Below are positions 2 to 64,000 of a DNA stretch of 64,000 bases, piece by piece. The stretch is from a virus. The notes beneath the pieces are model-generated. The model had not been told where the DNA came from, did no database searches, and saw only the letters and a program-made list of their open reading frames with translations. A program made the position numbers and the translations under genes. The stretch spans positions 74,863-138,862 of the IMG/VR virus record IMGVR_UViG_3300035703_000021; one strand, 5' to 3'. Numbering within the stretch: the stretch's first letter is position 1; each line of letters begins with the position of its first letter.

Positions 2-1312
2 AGGCCGGAGTGGTGGAAAGTGAGTGAAGGCCACTCCTACAACAACCAGCAGTTGCCTTCGTCGAGCAACGACCCTCTGGACGGATTCGTACGTAATTCA
101 TTTAAGAGCGTTCTGAAGTCAGACGCGCCAGGCGTCGGGCTTTACGGAAACGGAGGCAGCCCAGTCACGTATACCTCGCGCCCGAATATGATCCTGGGCG
201 AGGCTCGGTTTGGTGTTACAGATACGTTAGGGTCCAATTACATCGGTGTTCGGATCGTTCCTAATCTTCTCGGGGAGGGCGGAAAGTTCACTATTAACGC
301 TCTGCCTGTTAATAATGCTACCTTTACCGACTCAACGCTTCTGGGCCAGAATGACCTTGGAGGTGGCTCTAATCACCTTACTTTCGCGGGGGATAAGCTT
401 AATCCTAGGGTGATGCAGGTCTACCTATGGACCAACCCGACCATACCTTCAACTTCTACGTACAATAAGTACTTTCTTCACATCAATCTTACTAACGTAA
501 CGCAGTCAGATAACCCAGTTACTTACGGACTACCACCATTCAGCAGCAATGAGTGGTTGTCTCCTATCACGATCATGGGCACCAGAGTGGCTAGTGATTC
601 GGCATTTACAACGCCGTCGAATTTTGTCTCGCCCCTACCTCTCACGGCGGAGAAGATCACTCTTGGAGCGTACGATCTTCTAGCGTTCTCCGTGAATCTT
701 TCGTCTATCCTCGTCGGTGGTGGAGAGGTGAATCAATTTTCAGGTAAGTACCTTCAGTTTTTCACTGAAGACGACCTTGCGTTCCAGTACTCCAGAGTGG
801 ATACAGGGGAGTCGCTTTCGTTCGCTGACGTTCTAAAGCTAACTTACACGGGCACTGCACCTAACTACGTATTTCAAGGAGCGAGCAGCGAGATCCCCAG
901 ACCACCATCCGACCGCGTTACTCCGTTTGGATTCGATAAATCTCAATTCAGCACCGGACTGTGCTATCCTCCATACAGTATCGGCAATCCGCTGCTCAGT
1001 AGCGTTGCGATAGAGGACACTCCTCTGTACACAACTCCCAGCGGCAATTACGACGTGTTCTGGGGAGATCCTACCAAGTCGGGTCTGGGAGGTAATACCC
1101 TAACACTTACGGAGAAGATCGAGTTTCAGAGCGCCGACGCCACGGGCATCGAAACGCTCAGCTCTCCTCCGACCGTGCTGTACTCCCAGTACACTCACAG
1201 ACTGAAGATAGACTCCCCGCTCCAGGGTTCCTTCGACGAGGACGTGCTGGAGCACATCGGCAACGGTGAGAAGGTTAAGGAGTCCTACTACGCCTACGTT
1301 CAGCTGGCCTAA
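2..1312 (+). CDS. Virion structural protein, C-terminal part (5' truncated by window edge)
   Basis: Frame is open from position 2 (RPEWWKVSE...), so the GTG at 20 is probably not the true start; S/T/G/P-rich composition like the neighbouring virion genes. Confidence 0.6.
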   Translation, partial: RPEWWKVSEGHSYNNQQLPSSSNDPLDGFVRNSFKSVLKSDAPGVGLYGNGGSPVTYTSRPNMILGEARFGVTDTLGSNYIGVRIVPNLLGEGGKFTINALPVNNATFTDSTLLGQNDLGGGSNHLTFAGDKLNPRVMQVYLWTNPTIPSTSTYNKYFLHINLTNVTQSDNPVTYGLPPFSSNEWLSPITIMGTRVASDSAFTTPSNFVSPLPLTAEKITLGAYDLLAFSVNLSSILVGGGEVNQFSGKYLQFFTEDDLAFQYSRVDTGESLSFADVLKLTYTGTAPNYVFQGASSEIPRPPSDRVTPFGFDKSQFSTGLCYPPYSIGNPLLSSVAIEDTPLYTTPSGNYDVFWGDPTKSGLGGNTLTLTEKIEFQSADATGIETLSSPPTVLYSQYTHRLKIDSPLQGSFDEDVLEHIGNGEKVKESYYAYVQLA

Positions 1313-2991: not shown

Positions 2992-5900
2992 TTAGTTGAG
3001 TCTTAGGATCTGGTTGGAAGCGTTTCTCCAGCAGATTCCGCTGATGCCGGATGGGCAGGAGGCGAGGGAGGTTAGGCCCGAGTCCGTGATCGACTGGTTT
3101 CGAGTCGTAACAACCTCGTAAGTTGTTGATACTGTCGTCGGGGATGTAAGTGGGGCCACGTAGGTAAATCCCATATCAAACCTGATGCCGGACAGGTTTC
3201 TGAACTTAGTGCCCAGTGGGCTCTCAGTTACTATCTGTGTTTTGTTCCTCTGTATCTTGTGATAAGCTCCGTTCACGAAGGCTCCTGGAACCTGCCTTGT
3301 TGTCGTACCGGCAGCCACCAGCTTGGTTTCGGAAGCACCGGCTTCATTTGTAACGGTGACCTGATTGAATACGTCAAGTGTCTCCGATCTGAAAAGCGAA
3401 GTAACCACGTCCGGGCCGGGGGCAACTGTGGTGGGAAAGATCTCCTGCTGCGTATAGTTAGAGTACTTGCCAGCCGAAGAGAGCTTGTTTCCCGAGAGTC
3501 TCACTAAGCAGTTAGTGAATCTCCGCAGTTTATCTATATCAACAACCTGGGATATGAGTCTCTGCACCACGGAGACGGGAAGGTTGTTCTCTGACAGATC
3601 CACGGTTATCTTCCTGGAGCCACCAGAGAAGATTTTTGATAGCGTCGAGGAAGAGCAGTCCGTGAGCATATTCCTACCAAAATCCACCGCGGAGTACGAG
3701 TCGTCAGCCACCTTGCCGAATCCGTTTCTGATATCCAGAGTCCCAGAGAGCCTGCAGTTTCTTGCTCTGAACCTCGATACTTCCGAGAACCCTGACTTGA
3801 ACCACCCGGAGATGTCAACAGTATTTCTGGTGAATACGAGAGTGCTGGATAGCGGATCAGGAATATTGCTGCTGATGGTCACGGTTGTATCTGTCACCGA
3901 GAGCACTCTGGCCAGCTCCGGCCCCGTGGCACTGGCCCTCACGGAGTCATTTACCAGCACCTTCTGCCTCATCGCTGAGCCACCGGTCAGTGTGAATACG
4001 GCATCATCCGGATCGGCGCTCGAGGCCGGAATAGCTCTGGAGATGCTCAGGCCACTTACCGACGTGCCCGAATGCGAACCGGATACGCAAGCGTCTCTCA
4101 ACTCCGGTACTCCCCAGTCGCTTCTGTAAACACTCTCAAGGCAGTTATTCACATCCACCACCTGAACTTCCGTAGTTGATGTGCCCTCGAAATCGGGAGG
4201 AAGGGCCCCTCCGTTCTCCGCGTTGCAACTCCAGGCGACTACGGAAACGATATCGCGGGCAAAGTAGAAATTGGACGGGGCGATAGACAGCGTTCTGAGG
4301 TCGTAGAAATCCGACCGGTTAATGTCCACTCCGATCTGCTTTCTGTCCGTCTCGTAAAGTCTCGTGGTTGGGAAGATGGGGAATCTTCCGGTCAGTCTAC
4401 TGGCCACAGATTCAAATGATGTCAGGCTGTACAGATTCTTCAAGTCGTTCTTCCTGAATCTATATGCCGGACCGAAGTACCCTATCGAGAATCCTGTGAG
4501 CTTGTGCTCGGCTCCTAAAGCCCGGTCGGGAGCAAAATTACCGGGAAGAAGGAAGCTTACACCGTTATCCACAATCGCGGACAGACTATTGCATCTCCCA
4601 ATGCTTATAGCGACGAGGTTTCCGGTCTCAGTGGCCGGATTACTACCGAGCGAGGGCATGACCCCCGTGGTGTTAGATTCGTACAGGTAGAGACCCGTTA
4701 GCTTCGGTGCCCTGAGAGCCGAGGACACATTGTCGAACTTAGCGCCGCCGGAGAACGACGCGTCAAGAGACGTAAGAGAACTCCACTGTCCGGACTGAAG
4801 ATTGATTGAGACACCCGTTCTGTTGATATCGATGGAGACGGTGTTCAGCAGCCAAGTGCTCCAGCTGGTGTCCGATGGGTTATTGATGTAACCAACGATA
4901 TTGTGATGCTGCCCGTACCTTCCTCCAACATTAAATGATCTCATCAAGTACCGTGATACGTGATTACTGTTGGTATGGTCGGCTGAAGTTCCGACGTTCG
5001 AGATATTCCCCTCCGCCCCTGAGCCGTAGATGTTGTAATCGATCAGAAAGCCGTTATTTTTGATCCTAGGAAGACTACCGAACAGGTATCTGTAAAGCCG
5101 GTCTGGATCGAAGTTAGACCAGTCAAGAGACCTCAGATTCGGGAACACATCGTCGAATCTAGGGCTTCTGCCATAGAATCGGTCCCCTAGCCTAAGTGAC
5201 TCCATCGCTGAGAACTCCCTGAAGTCGGTTCCAGCGACCCGGCTCTCGTTGCGAATGTACTTTCTGAATATCGGATCCGACCAGTCATTGCCGTCCTCGT
5301 TGAGGAATACGCCTTTCTTAGGAACGGTTAAGTAGCTGATTCCGGTGTACAGCTGGCCAAACCCAGTTGCAACTGCCGAGGAATCTCGTATATCAAACCA
5401 TCCCATCGGCCCGCTTCTCCAGACGTCTCCGGAGTTGCCTAGATCCAGGACTCTCAGCTTATTCTTTAGGGTCTTAAGCCACAGCGGAAGGATCGTTATC
5501 GATCCCTCGGACATTCTAAAGACCTCGAGGTTGTTAAATCCAATGAGTCCTAAGTCCTTGCGATCGGGGAACTCCTTCACGTCTATGCCGGAAAACTCCA
5601 GCCCCTTAACCTTCTCGGGGTTTACGTAGATGTACAGGTACAGATCGTAGAGATTCTGGTATCCGGTTTTTGTGATGTCTAGGTTCAGAGTGTATGTCAG
5701 CGATCCCTCTTGCTGACTTGCCGACGAAACCGGCAGGAACTCCACCGGCGCGGCGTTAGGACGGGCTTGGGCCGGCTGGATCTGGAATCCGTAGAAGTAC
5801 GGAGCGTTAGCGTCGGTAAACGTAAACGTGATAGAGCCTGTGGCCATACGGCAGAATATTCTCAGTGGCGTATTCTTGGTGGCCAAAAGCCTAACGGGTG

Positions 5901-55596: not shown

Positions 55597-58284
55597 TCAG
55601 AACATGGAATTGAATACGGGGATGAGGTCCTGGACAGAGACCGATCGACCATCCCCCTCGTCCTTCTGCTGCGAGACAGTCTTGGTGCTGGAGTCAGCGG
55701 ACTTTCGGAAGATCTTGTCGATCTCAATAGAGGAGAGCCAGGCGTTGGCCACCGGGAGCTCGTAGATACCGTAATTATACCGCATCCAGGCCCAGCACCA
55801 GGCGTGAGCGACCTGGAAGAGTGCGGCGACTTTCTCGGCCTGGGGCTCTGGGCAGAGGTACAAGATGCTGTCATGGACAGACATGCAGAACTCCGCTTCC
55901 AGCTCGTACTTATCAATCAACCACTCCATAGCGGTCATGAAGGCGTGGAGCATGGCGCTCCCGGTTGATTGAATGCACCAGTTGTTACGCATTGTCCAGA
56001 AGTCAGTTCCGACGCTTGAGGGACGGAAGGCGGTGGACATTTTCGTGCCGCTGAGGGGGTTGATCGGGCAGGGCATGTTGGCGATCCTGGCCATCTCGTT
56101 GTAGGCGTAGGAGTCGGATCCACCGATGAGGGTTTGGGAGAGCCGAGAGGCCTTCTCGCCTTTCTTGATCTTGATGAGTTTCTTGCCCATCTCCATCGCT
56201 TCCTTCATCGGGATGTTCTTGTTACCCTTGCGGATGGTATTGGCCAGGGTCTTGGCGCCGCATCCGTACAACATGCCGTAATTACAGCCCTTAGCAATCG
56301 CCCTGGAGATCCCGATGGCCTTGGCAGTCATCGAGTGCATGTCGCTTCCATCGTCTTTCGATCCCGCGAGGATGGAGTGGGAGAACTGAGTGCTCCCGGC
56401 CACCTTATGGAGTGAGTCGGCGAAGATGGATGCCACGACCGCCTCCTGGGCGTCGAAGTCGGACTCCACGAATACATATCCCTCGGGAGCTTGGACACGA
56501 GTCTTGATCTCACTGCCGATCTTATCGTACTTGGGATCGGGCACGGTCAGCCACAGATTCTCCCCAGCGCGATTGGTTGAGGTGTTGTGGGGAACCGAGG
56601 CGGGAATGATGAGGGCGAATTCCTTGCCATTGGGGGCGAGAACCTGCTCCACGTTCTGCTCCCGGACCCTGGAGCGGACACTCGTCCAGTAGGCGACATT
56701 CACTGCGAGGGAGATGAGCTCTTTCGCCTGCGGGAGGTCAGAGCTGAGAATCCCCGACTCGAAGTCCTCCACGTAATCCTTCGTAAGCACTCCACCGACA
56801 TTGACTCCTTCCCCGTCTTTGTGTGGGATGCGTACGTAATCGCCGCTGTCCTCGTCCTTGAAACACCAGCCCTTATCCGTGAAGAATTTGATAGGCTGGT
56901 CACCCCACTTGAGGCGGAGAAGAAGGTGCGATAGGCGGTTCTTTGTGGAGATACCCTCGATGACGGGTTTGCCATCCACGAGATCCTTGGCGGAGACGCT
57001 TCTCACCCATTTAGGTACTCCGTACCACTTGGAGCTGGGTTTTCCGGCCTTAGTGAGCTTGAAGCTGGCCTCCCAGTCGAGTTGGGAGAGCCACGGATCG
57101 TCCTTGATGTCCTCGTCGGTAAGCTCCCCCTCGTTCCAGGATTGATAGATCTCAGTGGCCATCTTGCCGAGGAGCTCCTCCTGGCGGGCGATGGAATCCT
57201 CCCACTGCTTCTCGCAGTCGGCAAACCACTGATCCCAGTCAGAGACGACGGGGAGCTTGGCAGCGGAGATGCCGAAGTGTCCGGCGAGAGTGGTCAGTGA
57301 CGGGTTGTTTTGAAGGTACTTAAGAACGAGGATCGAGTACAGCTCGAAGGTGATCTTAACGTCATTGAGGGCGTACTTGATCAGATCGTCGCGCTGGGGC
57401 AGAAAGTCCGACATCGACGTGGCATCGACGAAGGTATTCCGGATCTTCTTGTCGTCGGCCTCGAGCGGGATGGCCGGGCGGCAGTGGAAGTTGTAGCAGT
57501 CGATGAGATTATTCATCGAGCCCTTGTCCGCCCAGATCGGGTCGGCCTTGTACATCGACTTCTTCGCCTGTTTCTGAATATACCACCAGCGCTGGCCGGA
57601 GGCGAGGCCGGAAACGTTGATATGCGCCGACATCGTGTCAAACCACGAGTTGGTTTTGCCGAGGACGTACGCTTCGGAGGTTCGGGCTCGGTCGTAGGCA
57701 ACGTTGTGGGCGATGAACACGCCATCCTTAAGCCCCAGATCCACCAGTTTAGGTACGTAGGGAACTCTAGGATTCACAAAACTCTCGTGCATCCAGATGT
57801 AGTAGGCCTTCTCCGTAACAGCGGTGGCCAGGATCGGATGGGCGAAATCGCTTCCTTTGACGAAGGTCTCGCAGTCGAAGACACCGATCTTCTCCTCGAT
57901 ACCATCGACCACTTCGGGAGATCCGTCGAAGGGGTACTTGACCCATCCGGCGTACATGAAGAACTCGGTTTTATCCGGGGCGTCGGGGATCTCGGTGTAG
58001 GCGAAGTCCTTCATCAGGCGGACGCGGGACTCCGTGACCTCCTTCGAGATGGCGTCAAAGTGCTCCTTGATGTTGGAGGCCTGAAGCTCCGGAAGGGAGA
58101 AGTCGTCCAGGAAGAAGTTGTCCGGGTTCTTGACGGGAAAGTTGACTCCGAATCCCTCCATCTCCTCGCGGATATTATCGACTTTCTTGTCAGAAGGGGC
58201 CTTGTAGCCTACGCTATCGCCAAAGACCCTCGAGTTCATGGTGTCCGAGAGGACAACGTAGCCGAGGGAGTTCAGTTTGGACAT
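55597..58284 (-). CDS. Family A DNA polymerase, mitochondrial Pol gamma-like, with 3'-5' exonuclease
   Basis: VFDCET, AHNVAYDRAR, FDTMSAH..SGL, YALNDV, DDPWLSQLDW, IPHKDG..NVG, RAGENLWLT, GSEIK..VQAPEGY.FV.SDFDAQE, ISR..AK..NYG.LYG, RNNWCIQS, SVHD; start ATG 58284. Confidence 0.93.
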   Translation of the reverse strand: MSKLNSLGYVVLSDTMNSRVFGDSVGYKAPSDKKVDNIREEMEGFGVNFPVKNPDNFFLDDFSLPELQASNIKEHFDAISKEVTESRVRLMKDFAYTEIPDAPDKTEFFMYAGWVKYPFDGSPEVVDGIEEKIGVFDCETFVKGSDFAHPILATAVTEKAYYIWMHESFVNPRVPYVPKLVDLGLKDGVFIAHNVAYDRARTSEAYVLGKTNSWFDTMSAHINVSGLASGQRWWYIQKQAKKSMYKADPIWADKGSMNNLIDCYNFHCRPAIPLEADDKKIRNTFVDATSMSDFLPQRDDLIKYALNDVKITFELYSILVLKYLQNNPSLTTLAGHFGISAAKLPVVSDWDQWFADCEKQWEDSIARQEELLGKMATEIYQSWNEGELTDEDIKDDPWLSQLDWEASFKLTKAGKPSSKWYGVPKWVRSVSAKDLVDGKPVIEGISTKNRLSHLLLRLKWGDQPIKFFTDKGWCFKDEDSGDYVRIPHKDGEGVNVGGVLTKDYVEDFESGILSSDLPQAKELISLAVNVAYWTSVRSRVREQNVEQVLAPNGKEFALIIPASVPHNTSTNRAGENLWLTVPDPKYDKIGSEIKTRVQAPEGYVFVESDFDAQEAVVASIFADSLHKVAGSTQFSHSILAGSKDDGSDMHSMTAKAIGISRAIAKGCNYGMLYGCGAKTLANTIRKGNKNIPMKEAMEMGKKLIKIKKGEKASRLSQTLIGGSDSYAYNEMARIANMPCPINPLSGTKMSTAFRPSSVGTDFWTMRNNWCIQSTGSAMLHAFMTAMEWLIDKYELEAEFCMSVHDSILYLCPEPQAEKVAALFQVAHAWCWAWMRYNYGIYELPVANAWLSSIEIDKIFRKSADSSTKTVSQQKDEGDGRSVSVQDLIPVFNSMF

Positions 58285-58307
58285 AGAGAAAGCGTTCGTA
58301 TACAGCA

Positions 58308-58336
58308 ATCATACCACACAGCAAAAGCCCCGTCAA
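58308..58336 (-). promoter_or_regulatory. Sigma70-type promoter of DNA polymerase
   Basis: TTGACG-17 nt-TATGAT with extended TG. Confidence 0.75.
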
Positions 58337-58363: not shown

Positions 58364-59011
58364 TTAGTAGTATATGAGGAATTCCTCACGATCCGTGTAG
58401 TACACTCCCACTCCTTCGAAATTGGTGGCGTCGATGATCCTGAGGTTCTTGCGAAAGTACGGGTAGCCGTAATGCCCGAAGAAGTACTCCGCGTCCGGCT
58501 CTATGTGGTCCTCGAGTGGGTCGTTCTTGAACCAGGGGTAACCGATACCGTTGAGGACGTCGTTTCGGTTGGAGTCGGTGTAGTAGGGGTTGTAGTAGGC
58601 GTGGGCGCAGCGATAGGTCCTGCCGTAAGACTCGAATTCCAGGGTAAGAGGGGCCGTGGCTAACCAGTGGAGAAGGTCTAGGCGGTCTTTAAGCCCCATT
58701 TCCTTGAGACACTCGAGCGTGTACTTAACCTCCTTCTGCTTGATATCGCTCTTAGGAAGGACGAGGTTTTTGAGGATGTAGTTCTCGTTGTTGCCGATGA
58801 TAAAGGAGGCTTGACCCTCCTCTGTGAGAGATTTTATCTTGGAAAGCATCCGTGTCGGGGACGAACGTCTCGATCTGCGGAAGAAGGCTTTATGGTGGAT
58901 GGTATCTCCGAGAAAGACGTAGTGGTAGTCAGGTGATCGCTGCAGGATTCTGTCCAGAGTCTCTATACGGCCATGAAGATCACCAATGATGCAGTATTTG
59001 TCAGTACTCAT
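58364..59011 (-). CDS. Calcineurin-like metallophosphoesterase
   Basis: IIGDLHG, VFLGD, GNNE (usually GNHE), CAHA, FFGH. Confidence 0.85.
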   Translation of the reverse strand: MSTDKYCIIGDLHGRIETLDRILQRSPDYHYVFLGDTIHHKAFFRRSRRSSPTRMLSKIKSLTEEGQASFIIGNNENYILKNLVLPKSDIKQKEVKYTLECLKEMGLKDRLDLLHWLATAPLTLEFESYGRTYRCAHAYYNPYYTDSNRNDVLNGIGYPWFKNDPLEDHIEPDAEYFFGHYGYPYFRKNLRIIDATNFEGVGVYYTDREEFLIYY

Positions 59012-59525
59012 CCCGGCCCTCCAGGCAACAGCCAGGTGCCCACCACTTCGGCGACTCGGTTTTCCACACGGCGAATCTCCACTTCATCCAGTTGTAGTAG
59101 TTGCGGTAGGCCTGAACTGCGTCTCCTTCCACCTTGCAGAAGTCGGGCATGGCCTGGGCGGGCTGAGTATATCCGATATCGGGAAACGTCTTGACAACAT
59201 CTTTAATAGAGATGGATTGGAGACTTTTTGCTCCGCTATGTAACTTACCGTAGCGAATGTGAAACTCCTCGCAGAGATGCAGAGTCATTCTCCAGGTCCA
59301 GATAAAATTGGCACTAGACTCCCTCACCCACTTGGTGCATGGGTGGTTTTTGAATGCTCGAACGGAGTAGAAATTACCGTCCTTCTTGCGGGCAGGGTTG
59401 AGACCGTAGTGGGCGAGCGCGACGCTCATCATCTGTAGGTGTTCTATGATCATCTTGTTGACGTGCTTGTCGCAGTGTGCTTCGGCTGCGAGCTTCGGCT
59501 TGTAGTCTAGGACGAAGATGTTCAT
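59001..59525 (-). CDS. Pyrimidine-dimer DNA glycosylase / endonuclease V family-like protein
   Basis: MNIFVLD...AA..HCDKHV.KM..E..QM, NHPCTKW, LCEEF..RYGK.H, QAMPD..K, AYRNYY...K...W...P.W. Confidence 0.75.
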   Translation of the reverse strand: MNIFVLDYKPKLAAEAHCDKHVNKMIIEHLQMMSVALAHYGLNPARKKDGNFYSVRAFKNHPCTKWVRESSANFIWTWRMTLHLCEEFHIRYGKLHSGAKSLQSISIKDVVKTFPDIGYTQPAQAMPDFCKVEGDAVQAYRNYYNWMKWRFAVWKTESPKWWAPGCCLEGRDEY

Positions 59526-59549
59526 ACTAAGAACCCTCTGGATAGTTTG

Positions 59550-59579
59550 ATTCTATCTCAGAGGTGGGGCGGTTGTCAA
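59550..59579 (-). promoter_or_regulatory. Sigma70-type promoter
   Basis: TTGACA-18 nt-TAGAAT upstream of ATG 59525. Confidence 0.7.
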
Positions 59580-59589
59580 GGGCGAGTGG

Positions 59590-59736
59590 TCAGACGTCGT
59601 AGATCAGGCACTCCAACGACTCTGGGTATCTCTTGCAGAAGTCCCACAGTGGAGCTATAGCGCTTTTGGTTTGTGGTTCCGGCTTTACCTCGGTGGCGGT
59701 TGAGGTACGCTCCTGGAGGTTGTCGTCGTGTTCCAT
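59590..59736 (-). CDS. cp12: Truncated CP12-like peptide (48 aa)
   Basis: Not in ORF track; translation ends LWDFCKRYPESLECLIYDV, the CP12 C-terminal C-x3-P-x4-C motif; GTTTAAAG upstream. Confidence 0.75.
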   Translation of the reverse strand: MEHDDNLQERTSTATEVKPEPQTKSAIAPLWDFCKRYPESLECLIYDV

Positions 59737-59767
59737 TGGTGATCTGGCTAGTTTTCTTTAAACCTTA

Positions 59768-59839
59768 TGGGAGATACTGGGATCGAACCAGTGGCCTTTT
59801 CCGTGTAAAGGAACTGCTCTACCGCTGAGCTAATCTCCC
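59768..59839 (-). tRNA. trnV: tRNA-Val(TAC)
   Basis: Cloverleaf; anticodon loop TTTACAC. Confidence 0.9.
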
Positions 59840-59955
59840 TCTTCGAGCTCGTCCTCGTAGCTGCTTGGTTCTTCGAAAAGCTCGCGAAGCTTGAGCCTGT
59901 TGGCCAGCTCCAGTAGCCTGGAAAAATCTTCTTCCTTGGTCAGTTGTTCAGCCAT
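59830..59955 (-). CDS. Small acidic protein (41 aa, MAEQLTKEE...KLRELFEEPSSYEDE..)
   Basis: ATG 59955 just after GTTTAAAG; TAG stop lies at tRNA-Val positions 8-10. Confidence 0.6.
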   Translation of the reverse strand: MAEQLTKEEDFSRLLELANRLKLRELFEEPSSYEDELEEGD

Positions 59956-59977
59956 CGAAGAACTTTAAACTGCTACA

Positions 59978-60059
59978 TGCACGAGAGAGGACTTGAACCT
60001 CCACGTTGTTAAACGGTAGCTTCTAAGGCTACTGTGTCTACCTATTCCACCACTCGTGC
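59978..60059 (-). tRNA. trnL: tRNA-Leu(TAG)
   Basis: Cloverleaf with variable arm; loop CTTAGAA. Confidence 0.9.
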
Positions 60060-60512
60060 TAAGGGAGTTCTGTTAGAGAACGTTGGTGTTTGAGAGTGAC
60101 AATTAGGGCATAATAGCCTTAAATTGTCTACTGTATTATTATAACATTGACCATCGACATGATCAACTTGTAGTTTTAAAAATTTACCATTCCACTCTGA
60201 AGAAATACCACATTCCTGGCAGTTTTCGCCTTTTTCTTGGACCAAAAGTCTAAATATAACGCTCCTTTTGCAGTTTTTACCCTTGTTTTTTGTATACTCA
60301 CTTAATGATAGCCACTTATTATTTCCTCCCAGCTTTCTTATTTTAGCCGTGTAATCAGGCTTATAATCCGGAAGCCATTTGGAAGTTCTGCGTCTAAGTG
60401 TGTCAGGCCTACAGTTTAGTTCTAGGCACAACTCCGTTGGAGTTTTATTGCCAGACAATAGGCTATTTATTATGTAGTCTTTTTTGCTATCAATGTCCTT
60501 TCGTAGTCTCAT
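60042..60512 (-). mobile_element. Free-standing HNH endonuclease in the tRNA array
   Basis: CQECG...WNGK...LQVDHVDG...NN..DNLRLLCPNCHSQT; N-terminal HTH-like segment; visibly AT-richer than flanks. Confidence 0.88.
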
Positions 60513-60557
60513 AATAGTAAACTCTATTAGTCTATAAACTATAAGTCTACCATTAAG

Positions 60558-60630
60558 TGCTCCTTGCGTGGATCGAGCACGCCTCTATCCGATTGTGAGT
60601 CGGGCGCTTTCACCAGATAGCTAAAGGAGC
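60558..60630 (-). tRNA. tRNA with CAC anticodon on an Ile2/Met(CAT)-like body (variant or pseudogene)
   Basis: Loop CTCACAA; T-loop CTCGATC (C54). Confidence 0.7.
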
Positions 60631-60633
60631 TGA

Positions 60634-60726
60634 TAGGGGTGGAGGGACTCGAACCCCCAACCGCGCGGTAATCTGCCGCATACGGAAGGTATAAGCTTCC
60701 CGCTCTGCCAATTGAGCTACACCCCC
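60634..60726 (-). tRNA. trnI: tRNA-Ile(TAT) with long variable arm
   Basis: GGAAG-CTTATAC-CTTCC; V-arm GCGG-CAGATTA-CCGC. Confidence 0.8.
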
Positions 60727-60743
60727 TTATGTGTTACCCGTAT

Positions 60744-60772
60744 ATTATACCAGGTATTAGTAAGTCTGTCTA
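60744..60772 (-). promoter_or_regulatory. Sigma70-type promoter for the distal tRNA/HNH segment
   Basis: TAGACA-17 nt-TATAAT with extended TG. Confidence 0.75.
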
Positions 60773-60918
60773 GAGTCCACGACAAATTCCTCTTTTGTCA
60801 GGAAGTCGTAGACGAGAAAGATGGCGTAGTAGCCTGGAAAGTCCACAAGCACCGATCTCACCCCACCGAGCCTCTCGCACCCGTCTCTGCGAAACCTGAC
60901 GGATCCGAGGAATTTCAC
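60757..60918 (-). CDS. Small hypothetical protein (53 aa)
   Basis: GTGA-coupled to the upstream gene; open to TAA at 60757. Confidence 0.45.
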   Translation of the reverse strand: MKFLGSVRFRRDGCERLGGVRSVLVDFPGYYAIFLVYDFLTKEEFVVDSRQTY

Positions 60919-61367
60919 TGGAATCTCTGCAGTTCCTGGCGAGGCTGATTAACGGAGAACATCTTGCCTAGAACGTCGCTCTCGGCCACGACAAATGTGA
61001 AGAGCATCAACGCCCCGGCTATCAGCCAGCGGTACCTTGAGAGGTCGATGATCTTCTTGTGAGCGTCATCTACGGACTCTTTTACCTCTTTAAGCCCTCC
61101 GTTGAACTTCTCAAGGTCCTGCTTTCTCTGCTCTTTGAGCTCGTCGAGAAGCTTCATGATGGCAGCGTCGGACTGTATGGTTTGATCAAGCCGCTCCTCG
61201 TGGCGAACGAGGATCTTAGCGACGTTCTGATTTGCTTCAGAGATCTTGTCCACTGCCGCCTCGAGTTTGGCTAGCATCTCCTTAGAAAGCTCTTCGTAAA
61301 CATTTAGCTTTTCCTCTAAAACGGCCATCCTTACGTTCGATCCGGAGTCGGGAAGAAAGTTAACCAT
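60915..61367 (-). CDS. Coiled-coil protein with C-terminal transmembrane helix (cyanophage conserved; holin-like architecture)
   Basis: AVLEEKL..YE.LS.EML.KLE.AV.KISE.N..VA.IL.RHEERL; RWLIAGALMLFTFVV TM segment. Confidence 0.7.
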   Translation of the reverse strand: MVNFLPDSGSNVRMAVLEEKLNVYEELSKEMLAKLEAAVDKISEANQNVAKILVRHEERLDQTIQSDAAIMKLLDELKEQRKQDLEKFNGGLKEVKESVDDAHKKIIDLSRYRWLIAGALMLFTFVVAESDVLGKMFSVNQPRQELQRFQ

Positions 61368-61430
61368 TTTTATAAGATGCTATTTAAAATACCAAAAGGT
61401 CTTTCAACACAGATCCCTTCGCGTTTCGCA

Positions 61431-61519
61431 CGGAGAAGGAGGGATTCGAACCCTCGATGGGGGTGAACCCCCATACAGCATTTCCAATGCTGCGCCATCA
61501 ACCACTCGGCCACCTCTCC
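61431..61519 (-). tRNA. trnS: tRNA-Ser(GGA)
   Basis: Long V-arm; loop TTGGAAA; G73. Confidence 0.9.
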
Positions 61520-61522
61520 AGG

Positions 61523-61595
61523 CTGGGGTAGCAGGGCTCGAACCTGCGACAGGACGGTTAACAGCCGTCTGCTCTACCAACTGAGCTATACCCCA
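61523..61595 (-). tRNA. trnN: tRNA-Asn(GTT)
   Basis: Loop CTGTTAA. Confidence 0.92.
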
Positions 61596-61667
61596 AGCCC
61601 CCGACTGGATTTGAACCAGCAATCTTCGCTTTACAAGAGCGCTGCATTACCATTATGCTACAAGGGC
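61596..61667 (-). tRNA. trnT: tRNA-Thr(TGT)
   Basis: Loop CTTGTAA. Confidence 0.9.
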
Positions 61668-61688
61668 ATTATGCCTCATAAGAAGCAA

Positions 61689-61773
61689 CGGAAAGGAGAG
61701 GATTCGAACCTCCGGAGACTTTCATCTCTTTTGTTTTCGAGACAAACGCCTTAAACAACTCGGCCACCTTTCC
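61689..61773 (-). tRNA. trnS: tRNA-Ser(CGA)
   Basis: Loop CTCGAAA; V-arm; D-loop reads TG instead of GG. Confidence 0.85.
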
Positions 61774-61841
61774 AATTTTGATGGAGTAAGTGTGTTATAT
61801 CTTATATATATATATATAACAGGGACTTACCCTCTATCAAT

Positions 61842-61870
61842 AGTATATATGACATTTAATTGAATGTCAA
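61842..61870 (-). promoter_or_regulatory. Sigma70-type promoter overlapped by a palindrome
   Basis: TTGACA-17 nt-TATACT; TGACATT-n6-AATGTCA inverted repeat. Confidence 0.8.
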
Positions 61871-61944
61871 CGTCCTCTGCAGGATTTGAACCTGCGACTT
61901 CTTGGTTCGTAGCCAAGCACTCTATTCCGCTGAGTTAAGAGGAC
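61871..61944 (-). tRNA. trnR: tRNA-Arg(ACG)
   Basis: Loop CTACGAA. Confidence 0.92.
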
Positions 61945-61947
61945 AGG

Positions 61948-62019
61948 CGAAGGGATAGGGACTTGAACCCTAACTAGAACTTTTGGAGAGTTCCGTGCTA
62001 CCAATTACACCATCCCAAC
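61948..62019 (-). tRNA. trnW: tRNA-Trp(CCA)
   Basis: Loop CTCCAAA; two U-U mismatches in acceptor stem. Confidence 0.82.
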
Positions 62020-62021
62020 GG

Positions 62022-62093
62022 GGTGTCGTATGAGAATTGAACTCATCTTTTCTGTTCCACAAACAGATGCCTTAACCACTAGGCTAACGACAC
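62022..62093 (-). tRNA. trnH: tRNA-His(GTG)
   Basis: Loop TTGTGGA; C73. Confidence 0.88.
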
Positions 62094-62094
62094 A

Positions 62095-62166
62095 AGGCAG
62101 TGAGTAGAATCGAACTACCGACATAGAGGGTATGAATCTCTTGTTCTACCACTGAACTACACTGCC
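62095..62166 (-). tRNA. trnM: tRNA-Met(CAT), elongator-type
   Basis: Loop TTCATAC; paired G1-C72. Confidence 0.8.
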
Positions 62167-62168
62167 AA

Positions 62169-62257
62169 CGGAAGTGGTTGGATTTGAACCAACGGTGCCG
62201 ATTACTCGACACGGAATCTTAGCAGGATTCTGCGATAAGCCACTCTGCCACACTTCC
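62169..62257 (-). tRNA. trnS: tRNA-Ser(GCT)
   Basis: Loop CTGCTAA; long V-arm. Confidence 0.9.
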
Positions 62258-62261
62258 TAGG

Positions 62262-62333
62262 TGGAACCGACAAGACTCGAACTTGTGACCGCTCGGTTAT
62301 CAGCCGAGTGCTCTACCACTGAGCTACGGTTCC
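62262..62333 (-). tRNA. trnI: tRNA-Ile(GAT)
   Basis: Loop CTGATAA. Confidence 0.92.
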
Positions 62334-62337
62334 AACG

Positions 62338-62495
62338 TGGGTTGCTGTCTCTTCCCTTTTCCTTTCCCCACTTCGCATCCCCAAGAGATAGGGCAGGGGT
62401 AATTCCGAGTTTGTCACCAAGATTCATAGAGTATGAAGGTTAGCTAGACCTTCCTCTACTTCACTAAAATGTTACTCATATCGGGCAGCAACCCA
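62338..62495 (-). ncRNA. Candidate structured ncRNA A (158 nt)
   Basis: Perfect 10-bp closing stem TGGGTTGCTG/CAGCAACCCA plus internal hairpins; fills the Phe-Ile spacer. Confidence 0.6.
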
Positions 62496-62497
62496 AG

Positions 62498-62571
62498 AGG
62501 GAACAATCGGATTCGAACCGATAACACCACGCTCTTCAGGCGTGTGCTCTACCAGTTGGAGCTATGTTCCC
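62498..62571 (-). tRNA. trnF: tRNA-Phe(GAA)
   Basis: Loop CTGAAGA. Confidence 0.9.
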
Positions 62572-62648
62572 TGGCACCCCGGATTGGACTCTAACCAATG
62601 ACAAACCGCTTAGAAGGCGGATGCTCTATACAACTGAGCTACCGGGGC
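62572..62648 (-). tRNA. trnR: tRNA-Arg(TCT), CCA encoded
   Basis: Loop CTTCTAA; U19/A56 variant. Confidence 0.85.
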
Positions 62649-62650
62649 TT

Positions 62651-62810
62651 GGGGCGCCGAAGCGCCTGGGCGGGGGTATCCACCTACGATGAGCGACCTT
62701 GCAACCCGCTAGGCGGATGAAGAAGCCGGTTTCGCCATTCTACGATGCGGTTTACGGGACCCTTCGTTTAAGCCTCCGTTCCTTGGAGGCCCCGGGCGCT
62801 TATAGCGCCG
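62651..62810 (-). ncRNA. Candidate structured ncRNA B (160 nt)
   Basis: Hairpins GGCGCT/AGCGCC, GCCTCC/GGAGGC, GGCGC-TTCG-GCGCC; CGGGG/CCCCG long-range stem. Confidence 0.55.
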
Positions 62811-62811
62811 A

Positions 62812-62883
62812 TCGGGGTGAGAGGGATCGAACCTCTGTCTTCCTGCTCCCAAAGCAGGCCGTCTACCGCTGACTTACACCCCG
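62812..62883 (-). tRNA. trnP: tRNA-Pro(TGG)
   Basis: Loop TTTGGGA. Confidence 0.92.
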
Positions 62884-62885
62884 TG

Positions 62886-63085
62886 ATGGCCTACGTGTGA
62901 GATCAGGTCTTATGGCTAGGAAGAGGGAGCTACCCTCCACCACCTACCGCCTGCACAGGGACGTAAGCTCTATCTTAGACAATTGTCATCTTAGCGCTAA
63001 GCACCTCGCATATTACGACGCTGTGAGGAGGTCGTCGGAGATTTAACGATAATCTCTTACGTTCTGGGGGATCTAGAACCCAGAA
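62886..63085 (-). ncRNA. Candidate structured ncRNA C (about 200 nt, multibranch plus pseudoknot)
   Basis: ACGTAAG/CTTACGT closing stem, CGACG/CGTCG hairpin whose loop ACCTC matches downstream GAGGT. Confidence 0.55.
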
Positions 63086-63159
63086 AAGCGTAGACGGGGG
63101 TCGAACCCGCAAATTTTGCCTTGAAAGGGCAATGACTTTACCAGTTTGTCTACTACGCC
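63086..63159 (-). tRNA. trnE: tRNA-Glu(TTC)
   Basis: Loop CTTTCAA. Confidence 0.87.
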
Positions 63160-63162
63160 AGG

Positions 63163-63245
63163 CGGAGAGGAAGGGAATCGAACCCCCGAGGCTTTTACAC
63201 CCAACAGTTTTCAAGACTGCGTCCTCGACCAACCGGACCCTCTCC
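63163..63245 (-). tRNA. trnS: tRNA-Ser(TGA), shortened acceptor-D connector
   Basis: Loop CTTGAAA; V-arm; G73. Confidence 0.82.
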
Positions 63246-63247
63246 GT

Positions 63248-63380
63248 ACGCCCATTCGTACTGATGATGGGCGGTAGGTCTACCTTTATCTCGCTCCGGG
63301 ACTAAGTAAACCTACAAATGGCATCCCGGCCCAAGCCTACTCCGACATGCTCAGCTGATAGGCACTGGAATTGCTGAGCA
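63248..63380 (-). ncRNA. Candidate structured ncRNA D (tandem pseudoknots)
   Basis: TGCTCAGC/GCTGAGCA with GCCTA/TAGGC; GTAGGTTTACTT/AGGTAGACCTAC with CCGGGA/TCCCGG; CGCCCAT/ATGGGCG. Confidence 0.6.
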
Positions 63381-63384
63381 CCGA

Positions 63385-63458
63385 CGACCCATAGGGGATT
63401 TGAACCCCTGATCTCCACCGTGACAGGGTGGCGTGATAGACCGCTACACTAATGGGTC
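63385..63458 (-). tRNA. trnD: tRNA-Asp(GTC)
   Basis: Loop CTGTCAC; G73. Confidence 0.92.
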
Positions 63459-63460
63459 AA

Positions 63461-63517
63461 TAGGCGCCGCAAGCAACTACGGCGCGACTCGTTGCTGAGT
63501 TGGCAACACTGTTGCCA
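63461..63517 (-). ncRNA. Candidate kissing-loop RNA element E
   Basis: Adjacent hairpin loops AGCAAC and GTTGCT are exactly complementary. Confidence 0.55.
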
Positions 63518-63590
63518 TGGAGTCTAGGGGACTCGAACCCCTGACAGCCTGCTTGCAAAGCAGGAGCTCTACCAGCTGAGCTAAAACCCC
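63518..63590 (-). tRNA. trnA: tRNA-Ala(TGC)
   Basis: Loop TTTGCAA; G3-U70. Confidence 0.93.
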
Positions 63591-63591
63591 G

Positions 63592-63671
<80 letters not shown>

Positions 63672-63674
63672 GTA

Positions 63675-63738
63675 ATGCCGCGCATTGGCCACGGCAGGTG
63701 CTTTTACTCTAGCACGCCAGAGTTGCCTTTTGGGCAAG
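63675..63738 (-). ncRNA. Candidate H-type pseudoknot element F
   Basis: ACTCT/AGAGT with GTGCT/AGCAC, flanked by two hairpins. Confidence 0.5.
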
Positions 63739-63829
63739 TAGGAGAGGAGGGAATCGAACCCCCGATGGTTCCGATGTAACGGTTTTACAGACCGCAGCCA
63801 CACATATTGCCAACAGTAGCCACTCTCCC
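63739..63829 (-). tRNA. trnY: tRNA-Tyr(GTA) with enlarged D arm
   Basis: Loop CTGTAAA; V region; D arm GCTAC-TGTTGGCAATATGT-GTGGC. Confidence 0.82.
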
Positions 63830-63832
63830 AGA

Positions 63833-63901
63833 TAGGTTATTTTGAGTGACGGCGCTGAGAAGCATCAGATCTCCCCCCAAGAGTCCGTTTCAAATAACCT
63901 A
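63833..63901 (-). ncRNA. Candidate structured element G
   Basis: Perfect 10-bp closing stem TAGGTTATTT/AAATAACCTA and inner ACGG/CCGT. Confidence 0.45.
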
Positions 63902-63902
63902 A

Positions 63903-63974
63903 TGGGTCTGGTGGGGCTCGAACCCACAACTTCCAGGTTAAAAGCCCGTTACTCTGCCATTGAGTTACAGACCC
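63903..63974 (-). tRNA. trnK: tRNA-Lys(TTT)
   Basis: Loop CTTTTAA. Confidence 0.9.
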
Positions 63975-64000
63975 ATAAAAGGTTTAGATTGTCGAGGTTC

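Follow-up and report, generated by a model that had tools for sequence, protein, structure and literature searches.

A conserved double-pseudoknot RNA element among the tRNA genes of an S-TIM5-like cyanophage

Five helices in a tRNA spacer

Why should a spacer between two phage tRNA genes be folded into knots? The spacer in question, 136 nucleotides (nt) at 63247-63382, separates tRNA-Asp from tRNA-Ser(tga) in a window of 64,000 nt, the final 64 kb of a 138,862-bp IMG/VR virus contig (record IMGVR_UViG_3300035703_000021), and it is filled by what we call the knot element. A first-pass annotation, made from the letters of the window, had placed five helices on the minus strand of 63248-63380, four of them making up two tandem pseudoknots, and had found that the arrangement looked non-random. 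Comparison with homologues shows that the knot element is a member of an uncatalogued, phage-only family of structured RNAs with no match in Rfam 15. Our preferred explanation, to which we give a slightly better than even chance, is that this member of a phage-specific family would be freed by tRNA processing as a small stable RNA that acts in trans.

All five helices are present where they had been placed, as verified pair by pair, and ARAGORN confirms the position between tRNA-Asp and tRNA-Ser. Stem 1 (also P0; 63348-63380, minus strand, as for all features of the element) is an 8-bp hairpin in which UGCUCAGC (63380-63373) pairs with GCUGAGCA (63355-63348) around a 17-nt loop that includes GCCUA (63363-63359). 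The same GCCUA pairs with UAGGC (63339-63335) to form knot 1 (P1; 63335-63363). The conserved H-type pseudoknot has knot 2 (63296-63329) as its helix S1, formed by CCGGGA (63329-63324) and UCCCGG (63301-63296); the latter, 3′ strand is part of the stem 2 loop. Helix S2 of that pseudoknot is stem 2 (63274-63315), which comprises 12 bp, 2 of them G-U, formed by GUAGGUUUACUU (63315-63304) and AGGUAGACCUAC (63285-63274). Two loops complete the knot: the conserved L1, UGCCAUUU (63323-63316), between the two strands of knot 2, and the A-rich L3, AGCGAGAUAA (63295-63286), inside the stem 2 loop. Stem 3 (63249-63273) is a 7-bp hairpin of CGCCCAU (63273-63267) and AUGGGCG (63255-63249) with an 11-nt loop.

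Judged from the window sequence alone, five helices in 133 nt are not beyond chance, and function is not shown thereby. The minimum free energy (MFE) of the spacer is −50.9 kcal/mol versus −41.2 ± 4.0 kcal/mol for its shuffles, with 2 of 200 shuffles equal to it (z = −2.42). Its MFE fold contains stem 3 and pairs the 5′ third differently from stem 1; taken by themselves, the three nested stems come to −35.7 kcal/mol. Among 5000 mononucleotide shuffles, 90% contain a helix of at least 5 bp between a loop and its flank, with G-U pairs allowed, and 42% contain such a helix of at least 6 bp. The claim of non-randomness thus fails on the single sequence; it is borne out once homologues are brought in, through the covariation described below.

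A family with a conserved pseudoknot and a variable 5′ domain

An exact 24-mer search returned one viral contig (L003), with an identical spacer and slightly different flanking tRNAs. Forty loci were then fetched around relatives of the window polymerase and searched with the spacer by BLAST; nt 42-107 of the spacer are conserved at 81-89% in five of them, where the conserved part follows tRNA-Asn or has no tRNA called nearby. A degenerate pattern drawn from the alignment of these loci retrieved 13 loci in viral contigs, the same 13 as a looser version, and 53 loci in metagenome contigs. From 42 non-identical copies we built a covariance model, R1, in which S2 is the sole modelled helix. Across 100 sources (702,667 bases), R1 gave 61 matches at 58.2-87.8 bits versus 11 noise matches at no more than 18.1 bits, and it recovered one copy that the pattern had overlooked (L011 1160-1234). 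The window copy of this family core (63264-63339, minus strand; 58.2 bits, E = 5.5e-13) is the lowest of the 61 true matches, yet it stands 40 bits above the best noise match, and neither the window nor the 138,862-bp contig as a whole contains another credible match. Other elements noted in the window on first reading were considered as further copies and rejected, the next best R1 match there reaching only 9.7 bits. Two arrays hold two knot copies each, of different subtypes: L011 at 606-682 and 1160-1234, and L101 at 516-589 and 958-1031, the two copies of an array lying 440-550 nt apart.

We scored the pseudoknot on a model-made alignment of 44 rows, 43 of them distinct (the family totals about 47 distinct sequences), taking S1 as columns 10-16 × 39-46 and S2 as columns 25-34 × 57-69. 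Standard pairs fill 94.0% of 731 cells versus 79.5 ± 0.8% in column shuffles, a value that none of 500 shuffles reaches. Among the 43 distinct sequences, changes on both sides are seen in 9 of the 17 pairs and in 97 cells, where 28 are expected; the covariation score is 0.448 versus 0.164, and sliding the partners by 1-3 columns lowers pairing to 23-54%. S1, i.e., knot 2, is paired in 97% of its cells, with changes on both sides in 4 of 7 pairs, and since S1 lies outside model R1, neither its pairing nor its four compensatory pairs can be an effect of fitting. S2, i.e., stem 2, is paired in 91.9% of its cells, with changes on both sides in 5 of 10 pairs. In the window copy, all S1 and S2 pairs are standard. 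The tally of pair types in the covariation table further counts 52 G-U cells, which places the RNA on the tRNA strand. On these comparative grounds, the conserved knot is a real, selected RNA structure.

The core measures about 55 nt and has the topology S1, L1, S2, L2, S1′, L3, S2′, with an N-UAG junction. S1 has 6-7 bp, L1 reads UGCC(A/G)UUU, S2 has 8-12 bp including three invariant U-A pairs, and the A-rich L3 reads GUGAUAAAAA, or AGCGAGA(A/U)AAA in the window lineage. Between the 5′ strand of S2 and the 3′ strand of S1 lie 2-4 nt, and between the 3′ strands of S1 and S2 an unpaired A-rich loop of 10-13 nt. The unpaired segments are strongly conserved, with roughly 25 invariant loop nucleotides. 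When the whole 5′ strand of S2 was left free in a control pattern, 14 new loci were obtained; the three U-A pairs are kept in all 15 R1 matches of these loci, and in L134 the G-C pair beside them is switched to C-G.

H-type pseudoknots with functional loops are known from the SAM-II and SAM-V riboswitches and from the telomerase RNA pseudoknot, which share with the knot element the topology, a U-rich L1, an A-rich L3 and U-A pairs in S2. This similar design, with the U-A pairs invariant in the family, is what would speak for a ligand-binding, riboswitch-like aptamer built on a triple-helix H-type pseudoknot, as in SAM-II/SAM-V or preQ1-II. We find such an aptamer scarcely credible: no Rfam riboswitch matches at E ≤ 10, and the element has tRNAs as flanks, with no expression platform, terminator, downstream open reading frame (ORF) or ribosome-binding site. 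The known examples differ from it, there being no Rfam match and no regulated gene or template, and a triple helix is conjectural here. We considered one in which the UUU of L1 would lie on the U-A pairs of S2 and found its geometry doubtful, because L1 enters S2 from the junction side and GCC, not UUU, comes to lie beside these pairs; it is kept as a conjecture only.

Upstream of the core, the position of stem 1 carries five different helix sequences in the window lineage (window/L051, L018, the L009 group, L093 and L078), namely UGCUCAGC/GCUGAGCA, CCCUUGC/GCAAGGG, CCCUCGUC/GACGAGGG, GACCG/CGGUC and CCCCCCUUGUU/AACAAGGGGGG. Knot 1 covaries as well, in three complementary pairs: GCCUA with UAGGC, GGUUG with CAACC (L093), and CCUGC with GCAGG (L078). 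A dedicated pattern for this knotted 5′ domain found no further variants in viral contigs, only the 11 known contigs. In about 30 of 48 distinct folded members, the 3′ strand of knot 1 closes a plain hairpin directly behind the tRNA, ranging from 7 bp up to branched forms of about 90 nt, and in five d-type members among the 48 the 5′ domain is not clearly assignable. This domain starts 0-3 nt past the tRNA 3′ end, usually behind 1-2 U. Each family member thus joins a variable helix domain, by a short linker, to the conserved knot, and in the window copy this first domain is knotted.

In sum, S1, S2, stem 1 and knot 1 all covary in homologues, and the complementarity of the partners of both knots is conserved. 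Four of the five helices of the first-pass structure, its two tandem pseudoknots and its assignment to the tRNA strand are upheld in this way. Stem 3 is not: it is found in the window and in the identical-spacer contig L003 only, without comparative support, and in L051, the nearest divergent relative, its place is taken by another hairpin module. Since no T-run follows it, stem 3 is not terminator-like either. It is an addition between knot and tRNA-Ser that is specific to this lineage and no part of the family structure.

A recurrent hairpin module, GCCAC...CCGG-AAAGAUAAA-CCGG...GUGGC, was observed at about 6176-6225 in L018 and about 665-710 in L051. It forms the 5′ domain of the knot elements of L086, L092, L095, L101, L105 and L106; in the nearest divergent relatives of the window copy it occurs by itself, close behind the knot. 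It may be a separate mobile RNA module. In Synechococcus phage DSL-LC02 (OR032571), 39 nt at 105624-105662, between two ORFs, are identical to the b-type 5′ hairpin. No tRNA is annotated in the 3-kb stretch inspected there, and R1 finds no knot core in the whole genome, so this 5′ hairpin travels alone too.

Position in the tRNA array and RNA evidence

The window array comprises 24 tRNA genes called by ARAGORN on the minus strand, from 59768 to the contig end. Upstream of the knot element, tRNA-Asp (gtc; 63383-63459, minus strand; 65.7 bits with the Rfam tRNA model) ends 2 nt ahead of stem 1, and its 3′ end probably marks where processing sets the 5′ limit of the element. Downstream, the 5′ end of tRNA-Ser (tga; 63161-63246, minus strand), a ribonuclease (RNase) P site, is the likely 3′ boundary; both genes are ARAGORN calls. 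Nothing resembling a promoter or terminator lies in the spacer at 63247-63382, Tandem Repeats Finder reports no repeat (0 rows) in 62800-63700, and no direct-repeat family lies over the spacer except one 14-nt chance pair. Across the family, every flanking tRNA found is co-oriented with the element (44 of 44 copies). In 35 of the 44 a tRNA ends 12-91 nt ahead of the core, a gap that the 5′ domain exactly fills; the tRNA there is chiefly tRNA-Asn, and also tRNA-Asp, -Thr, -Ser, -Pro or -Glu. The next tRNA starts 3-4 nt past S2 in 7 of the 44 copies. The knot element, in other words, occupies a tRNA slot.

The preferred explanation builds on this position. The array would be one transcription unit, and the element would be co-transcribed within a long tRNA precursor. 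A cut of the RNase Z type behind the discriminator base of the upstream tRNA would create its 5′ end, the 1-2 U that follow this base being a favorable context for RNase Z on precursors without an encoded CCA, and RNase P, in maturing the 5′ end of the next tRNA, would create its 3′ end. The RNA released, of about 100-135 nt, would have both ends tucked into helices and knots and so may persist. Its invariant unpaired nucleotides would offer a specific surface, most likely to a protein or other macromolecule of the infected picocyanobacterium, and it would act in trans during infection rather than serve as a mere spacer. Such an interaction in trans is favored by the roughly 25 invariant unpaired nucleotides and by the movement of the element between unrelated phages whose hosts are similar.

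RNA libraries bear on the array in two places. The neighboring 202-nt spacer between tRNA-Glu and tRNA-Pro (62884-63085, minus strand) is covered by RNA-library contigs from 4 runs of 3 studies, at 62884-63116, 62884-63068, 62889-63068 and 62916-63047. One of them stops exactly at the 5′ end of tRNA-Pro, the RNase P site, and carries a 22-nt A-tail. This neighboring spacer seems to encode a stable RNA of about 185 nt with a 3′ end generated by RNase P, and its contigs suggest that spacer RNAs of the window array probably accumulate. On the knot element itself there is a single RNA-library contig (run X17, 63194-63361, depth 3.8), and runs X18-X20 give no cover of 63247-63382.

This single contig is one of several points that weigh against release as a small stable RNA with a role in trans, since it bridges the 5′ end of tRNA-Ser; it would fit a precursor that is still unprocessed, or carry-over of DNA into the library. 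For nine of the 44 copies, one of which runs off its contig, the 91 nt upstream are free of tRNAs, and many copies have 60-800 nt until the next tRNA, so exact excision by the tRNA enzymes cannot hold for every member. Most family members were gathered by sequence patterns, which makes some of the invariance at loop positions partly a matter of construction. Finally, the trans role, probable as it is, is read from the pattern of conservation and from nothing else.

The same position could be explained by a cis-acting element in the tRNA 3′ trailer, which would steer the cut behind the discriminator or block exonucleases and have no later life. We consider this unlikely, if still deserving of weight. 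It would account for the 35 of 44 copies that start right behind a tRNA 3′ end, usually with 1-2 U between, and compact pseudoknots are known to block exonucleases, as described for coremin and exonuclease-resistant RNAs (xrRNA; PMC6546385). Exonuclease resistance of the compact knot, as the first-pass annotation had also proposed, would be plausible. The likeness to coremin and xrRNA-C is that of small knotted or double-hairpin RNAs of viral transcripts, thought to resist degradation; coremin is defined (PMC6546385) by two hairpins, the first of 3-5 bp with a YGAD loop, that are separated by a conserved 10-nt spacer, and this motif is absent from the knot element. A cis role is further at odds with the arrays themselves, where most tRNA-tRNA junctions manage with spacers of 0-3 nt. 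Many tRNAs abut in this manner in the window array (ARAGORN), so that the knot element is not required for processing as such, and its dispensability at most junctions argues against a mere processing aid. With at least six upstream tRNA species, no particular tRNA is served; the nearest upstream tRNA is 130-590 nt away from some copies; and some 25 invariant loop nucleotides exceed the needs of a mechanical block.

A structure close to an RNase P site also recalls the MALAT1 and MEN-beta transcripts, in which a triple helix directly precedes a tRNA-like RNA removed by RNase P (PMC8457004, PMC6379651). In both cases a compact structure ends a few nucleotides before the RNase P site, 3-4 nt in the 7 knot copies mentioned above, and the cut would leave a 3′ end buried in structure. 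MALAT1 differs in having an element for nuclear expression (ENE) with an A-rich tail, in a eukaryotic nuclear long noncoding RNA; here an H-type knot lies in a phage tRNA precursor, and the window copy has an extra hairpin, stem 3, between knot and tRNA. That the family is a new catalytic RNA class that cuts the tRNA precursor, or else the first phage counterpart of the MALAT1-type arrangement, with a 3′ end cut by RNase P and locked into a triple-helical knot, is distinctly improbable. If the former were true, cyanophages would mature part of their tRNA array independently of host RNases.

Known RNA families and distribution among phages

Searches against Rfam 15 placed the element in no known family. 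At E ≤ 10, the stretch 59000-64000 gave no match inside 63257-63371, and 63240-63390 alone (151 nt) gave only plus-strand matches resembling small nucleolar RNAs, at 12.9 and 10.8 bits. In eight loci with other members, the one match at E ≤ 1 that touches the element is to CRISPR-DR41, in L065; it is insignificant (E = 0.43) and falls for the most part on the tRNA 3′ end. A full-text literature search, with subscription journals outside its coverage, returned no description of the motif, and six contig identifiers are absent from supplementary files 3-6 of PMC10690425, which concern 8,495 candidate RNAs from IMG/VR.

Three simpler readings of the spacer were rejected. A degenerate or unusual tRNA is found there neither by ARAGORN nor by the Rfam tRNA models. 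A remnant of tRNA-Tyr, which follows tRNA-Asp in phage S-PM2, is ruled out by contig L003, which has the identical spacer with tRNA-Tyr placed ahead of tRNA-Asp, and by homologues of the spacer that are not tRNA-like. Protein coding is contradicted by the homologues, which vary by 1-nt indels and compensatory pair changes; the only ORFs are short, lie on the opposite strand, overlap tRNA-Ser and have no Pfam match.

The first-pass annotation had offered a ribozyme as one guess. Theta ribozymes are described as minimal ribozymes like that of hepatitis delta virus (HDV), known by the hundred in uncultured gut phages and located within ±5 nt of phage tRNA 3′ ends (PMC10879173). The knot element shares this position, with stem 1 beginning 2 nt behind tRNA-Asp, and a new class of self-cleaving ribozyme in the same niche, directly 3′ of phage tRNAs (PMC10879173), could cut the tRNA precursor and, for example, free the 3′ end of the upstream tRNA, as a counterpart of theta. 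A compact double-pseudoknot fold with many invariant unpaired nucleotides would suit such an RNA. We nevertheless hold this to be very improbable, as the guess finds no known family behind it: even at E ≤ 10 no Rfam 15 ribozyme matches the 151-nt stretch, those of HDV type included. The topology differs too. Theta has a nested P1/P2 double pseudoknot with P3/L3, P1.1 and P4, and its catalytic C lies in J4/2, whereas the knot element has two separate H-type knots in tandem, with no room for P3/L3, no P4 and no equivalent of J4/2. Next to the putative cleavage site, its 5′ domain varies from a 7-bp hairpin to a 90-nt branched form, unlike a conserved active site, and the sole RNA-library contig passes uncut through the core. 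Theta ribozymes belong to gut phages, in contrast to the freshwater and estuarine cyanophages that carry the knot element.

A second guess had been a type III antitoxin-like RNA. Type III antitoxin RNAs consist of tandem repeats of about 36 nt beside an endoribonuclease toxin gene, in bacteria or on plasmids. The likeness of the knot element to ToxI is that of a pseudoknot-forming small RNA linked to the conflict of phage and host; there are no tandem repeats of 34-40 nt, and no toxin gene lies beside the element because both its flanks are tRNAs. The ORFs embedded in the window array encode an HNH endonuclease (60042-60512, minus strand) and a DUF7201 coiled-coil protein (60915-61367, minus strand). 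With a single genome copy and no prokaryote counterpart by pattern scan, the guess does not hold up in its literal form. A broader version would make the element an anti-defense decoy: the phage would imitate a type III-like RNA antitoxin of its host, or offer some other RNA bait, to disarm a host nuclease. Sharing of the element by unrelated phages of similar hosts would agree with this, as would the Rfam abiF RNA motif, which scores above its gathering threshold in related arrays (L065, 52.2 bits; L109, 50.6 bits; L021, 39.4 bits), so that such arrays do host RNAs tied to abortive-infection systems. These abiF motifs lie at 71-107 (minus strand) in L065, 358-394 (minus strand) in L109 and 3599-3649 (plus strand) in L021, the last having abiF motif and knot element in one array; the window's own contig has none. 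An abiF motif is also reported in cyanophage S-CREM1 (PMC9964418). We regard a decoy as highly unlikely. The element shows no tandem or dispersed repeats and is single in the window contig and in the Synechococcus phage S-SZBM1, and the phage abiF copies, unlike the knot element, match a host-derived Rfam model. Moreover, an exact pattern that all phage copies satisfy gave only 2 chance hits (19 and 10 bits, no tRNAs nearby) among 185,579 prokaryote species genomes.

For the preferred explanation, a freed and stable RNA, the precedent is rnaC and rnaD of phage T4. These are annotated small stable RNAs of roughly 120-140 nt, next to tRNA-Arg in a phage tRNA cluster, and like the knot element they are co-oriented with the tRNA genes and have no known function. 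No relation is detectable: across the T4 tRNA region (L146), R1 with its filters off gives at most 3.7 bits, and T4 infects E. coli, whereas the knot family is limited to cyanophage-like contigs.

The window virus, a freshwater cyanophage, is itself a relative of cyanophage S-TIM5: the two share 71.7% identity in the family-A, gamma-like DNA polymerase, encoded in the window at 55597-58308 (minus strand). The family extends beyond this lineage. An unannotated copy (87.9 bits with R1) lies in the gap between tRNA-Pro and tRNA-Ala of S-SZBM1 (OL473597), a T4-like member of the Kyanoviridae, with one copy per genome, so that the element is common to S-TIM5-like contigs and a T4-like phage. Marine loci of the S-TIM5 type (about 71% polymerase identity) have few tRNAs and no R1 copy, and R1 finds nothing related in the S-PM2 tRNA array. 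Cultured-phage homologues were also sought by BLAST: the window-type variant returned only the flanking tRNAs in the best 40 of 166 records, and the d-type variant returned nothing. S-EIVl was considered as a carrier and dismissed, its 18.1-bit R1 match not being credible.

Some ARAGORN calls in these arrays stand out. On the minus strand of the window, tRNA-Ile(tat) (60634-60726, 93 nt) and tRNA-Arg(gcg) (63738-63829, 92 nt) are unusually long, as is tRNA-Met for its type (63591-63671, 81 nt), and tRNA-Arg(gcg) reaches only 28.4 bits, with the tRNA-Sec model alone and below threshold; these three genes may carry insertions or be miscalled. In a marine S-TIM5-type contig, L034, an asterisked transfer-messenger RNA call (772-1070) lies beside tRNA-Asp.

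Phage tRNA arrays are usually taken as lists of tRNAs; those of cyanophages also hold a conserved, elaborately folded RNA that is not a tRNA. Non-tRNA stable RNAs inside phage tRNA clusters are already known as a general kind, and it is the family that is new. It is well defined, with a calibrated model and strong covariation, and it is absent from Rfam and, by pattern scan, from prokaryote genomes. The knot element has been exchanged as a cassette between unrelated lineages, S-TIM5-like and T4-like, of phages of freshwater and estuarine picocyanobacteria. S-SZBM1 and its host Synechococcus sp. CB0101 are in culture and provide a copy, so that direct tests of processing, structure and function are feasible. 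The new double-pseudoknot RNA family thereby joins the small set of phage stable RNAs that has stood unexplained since T4 rnaC and rnaD.

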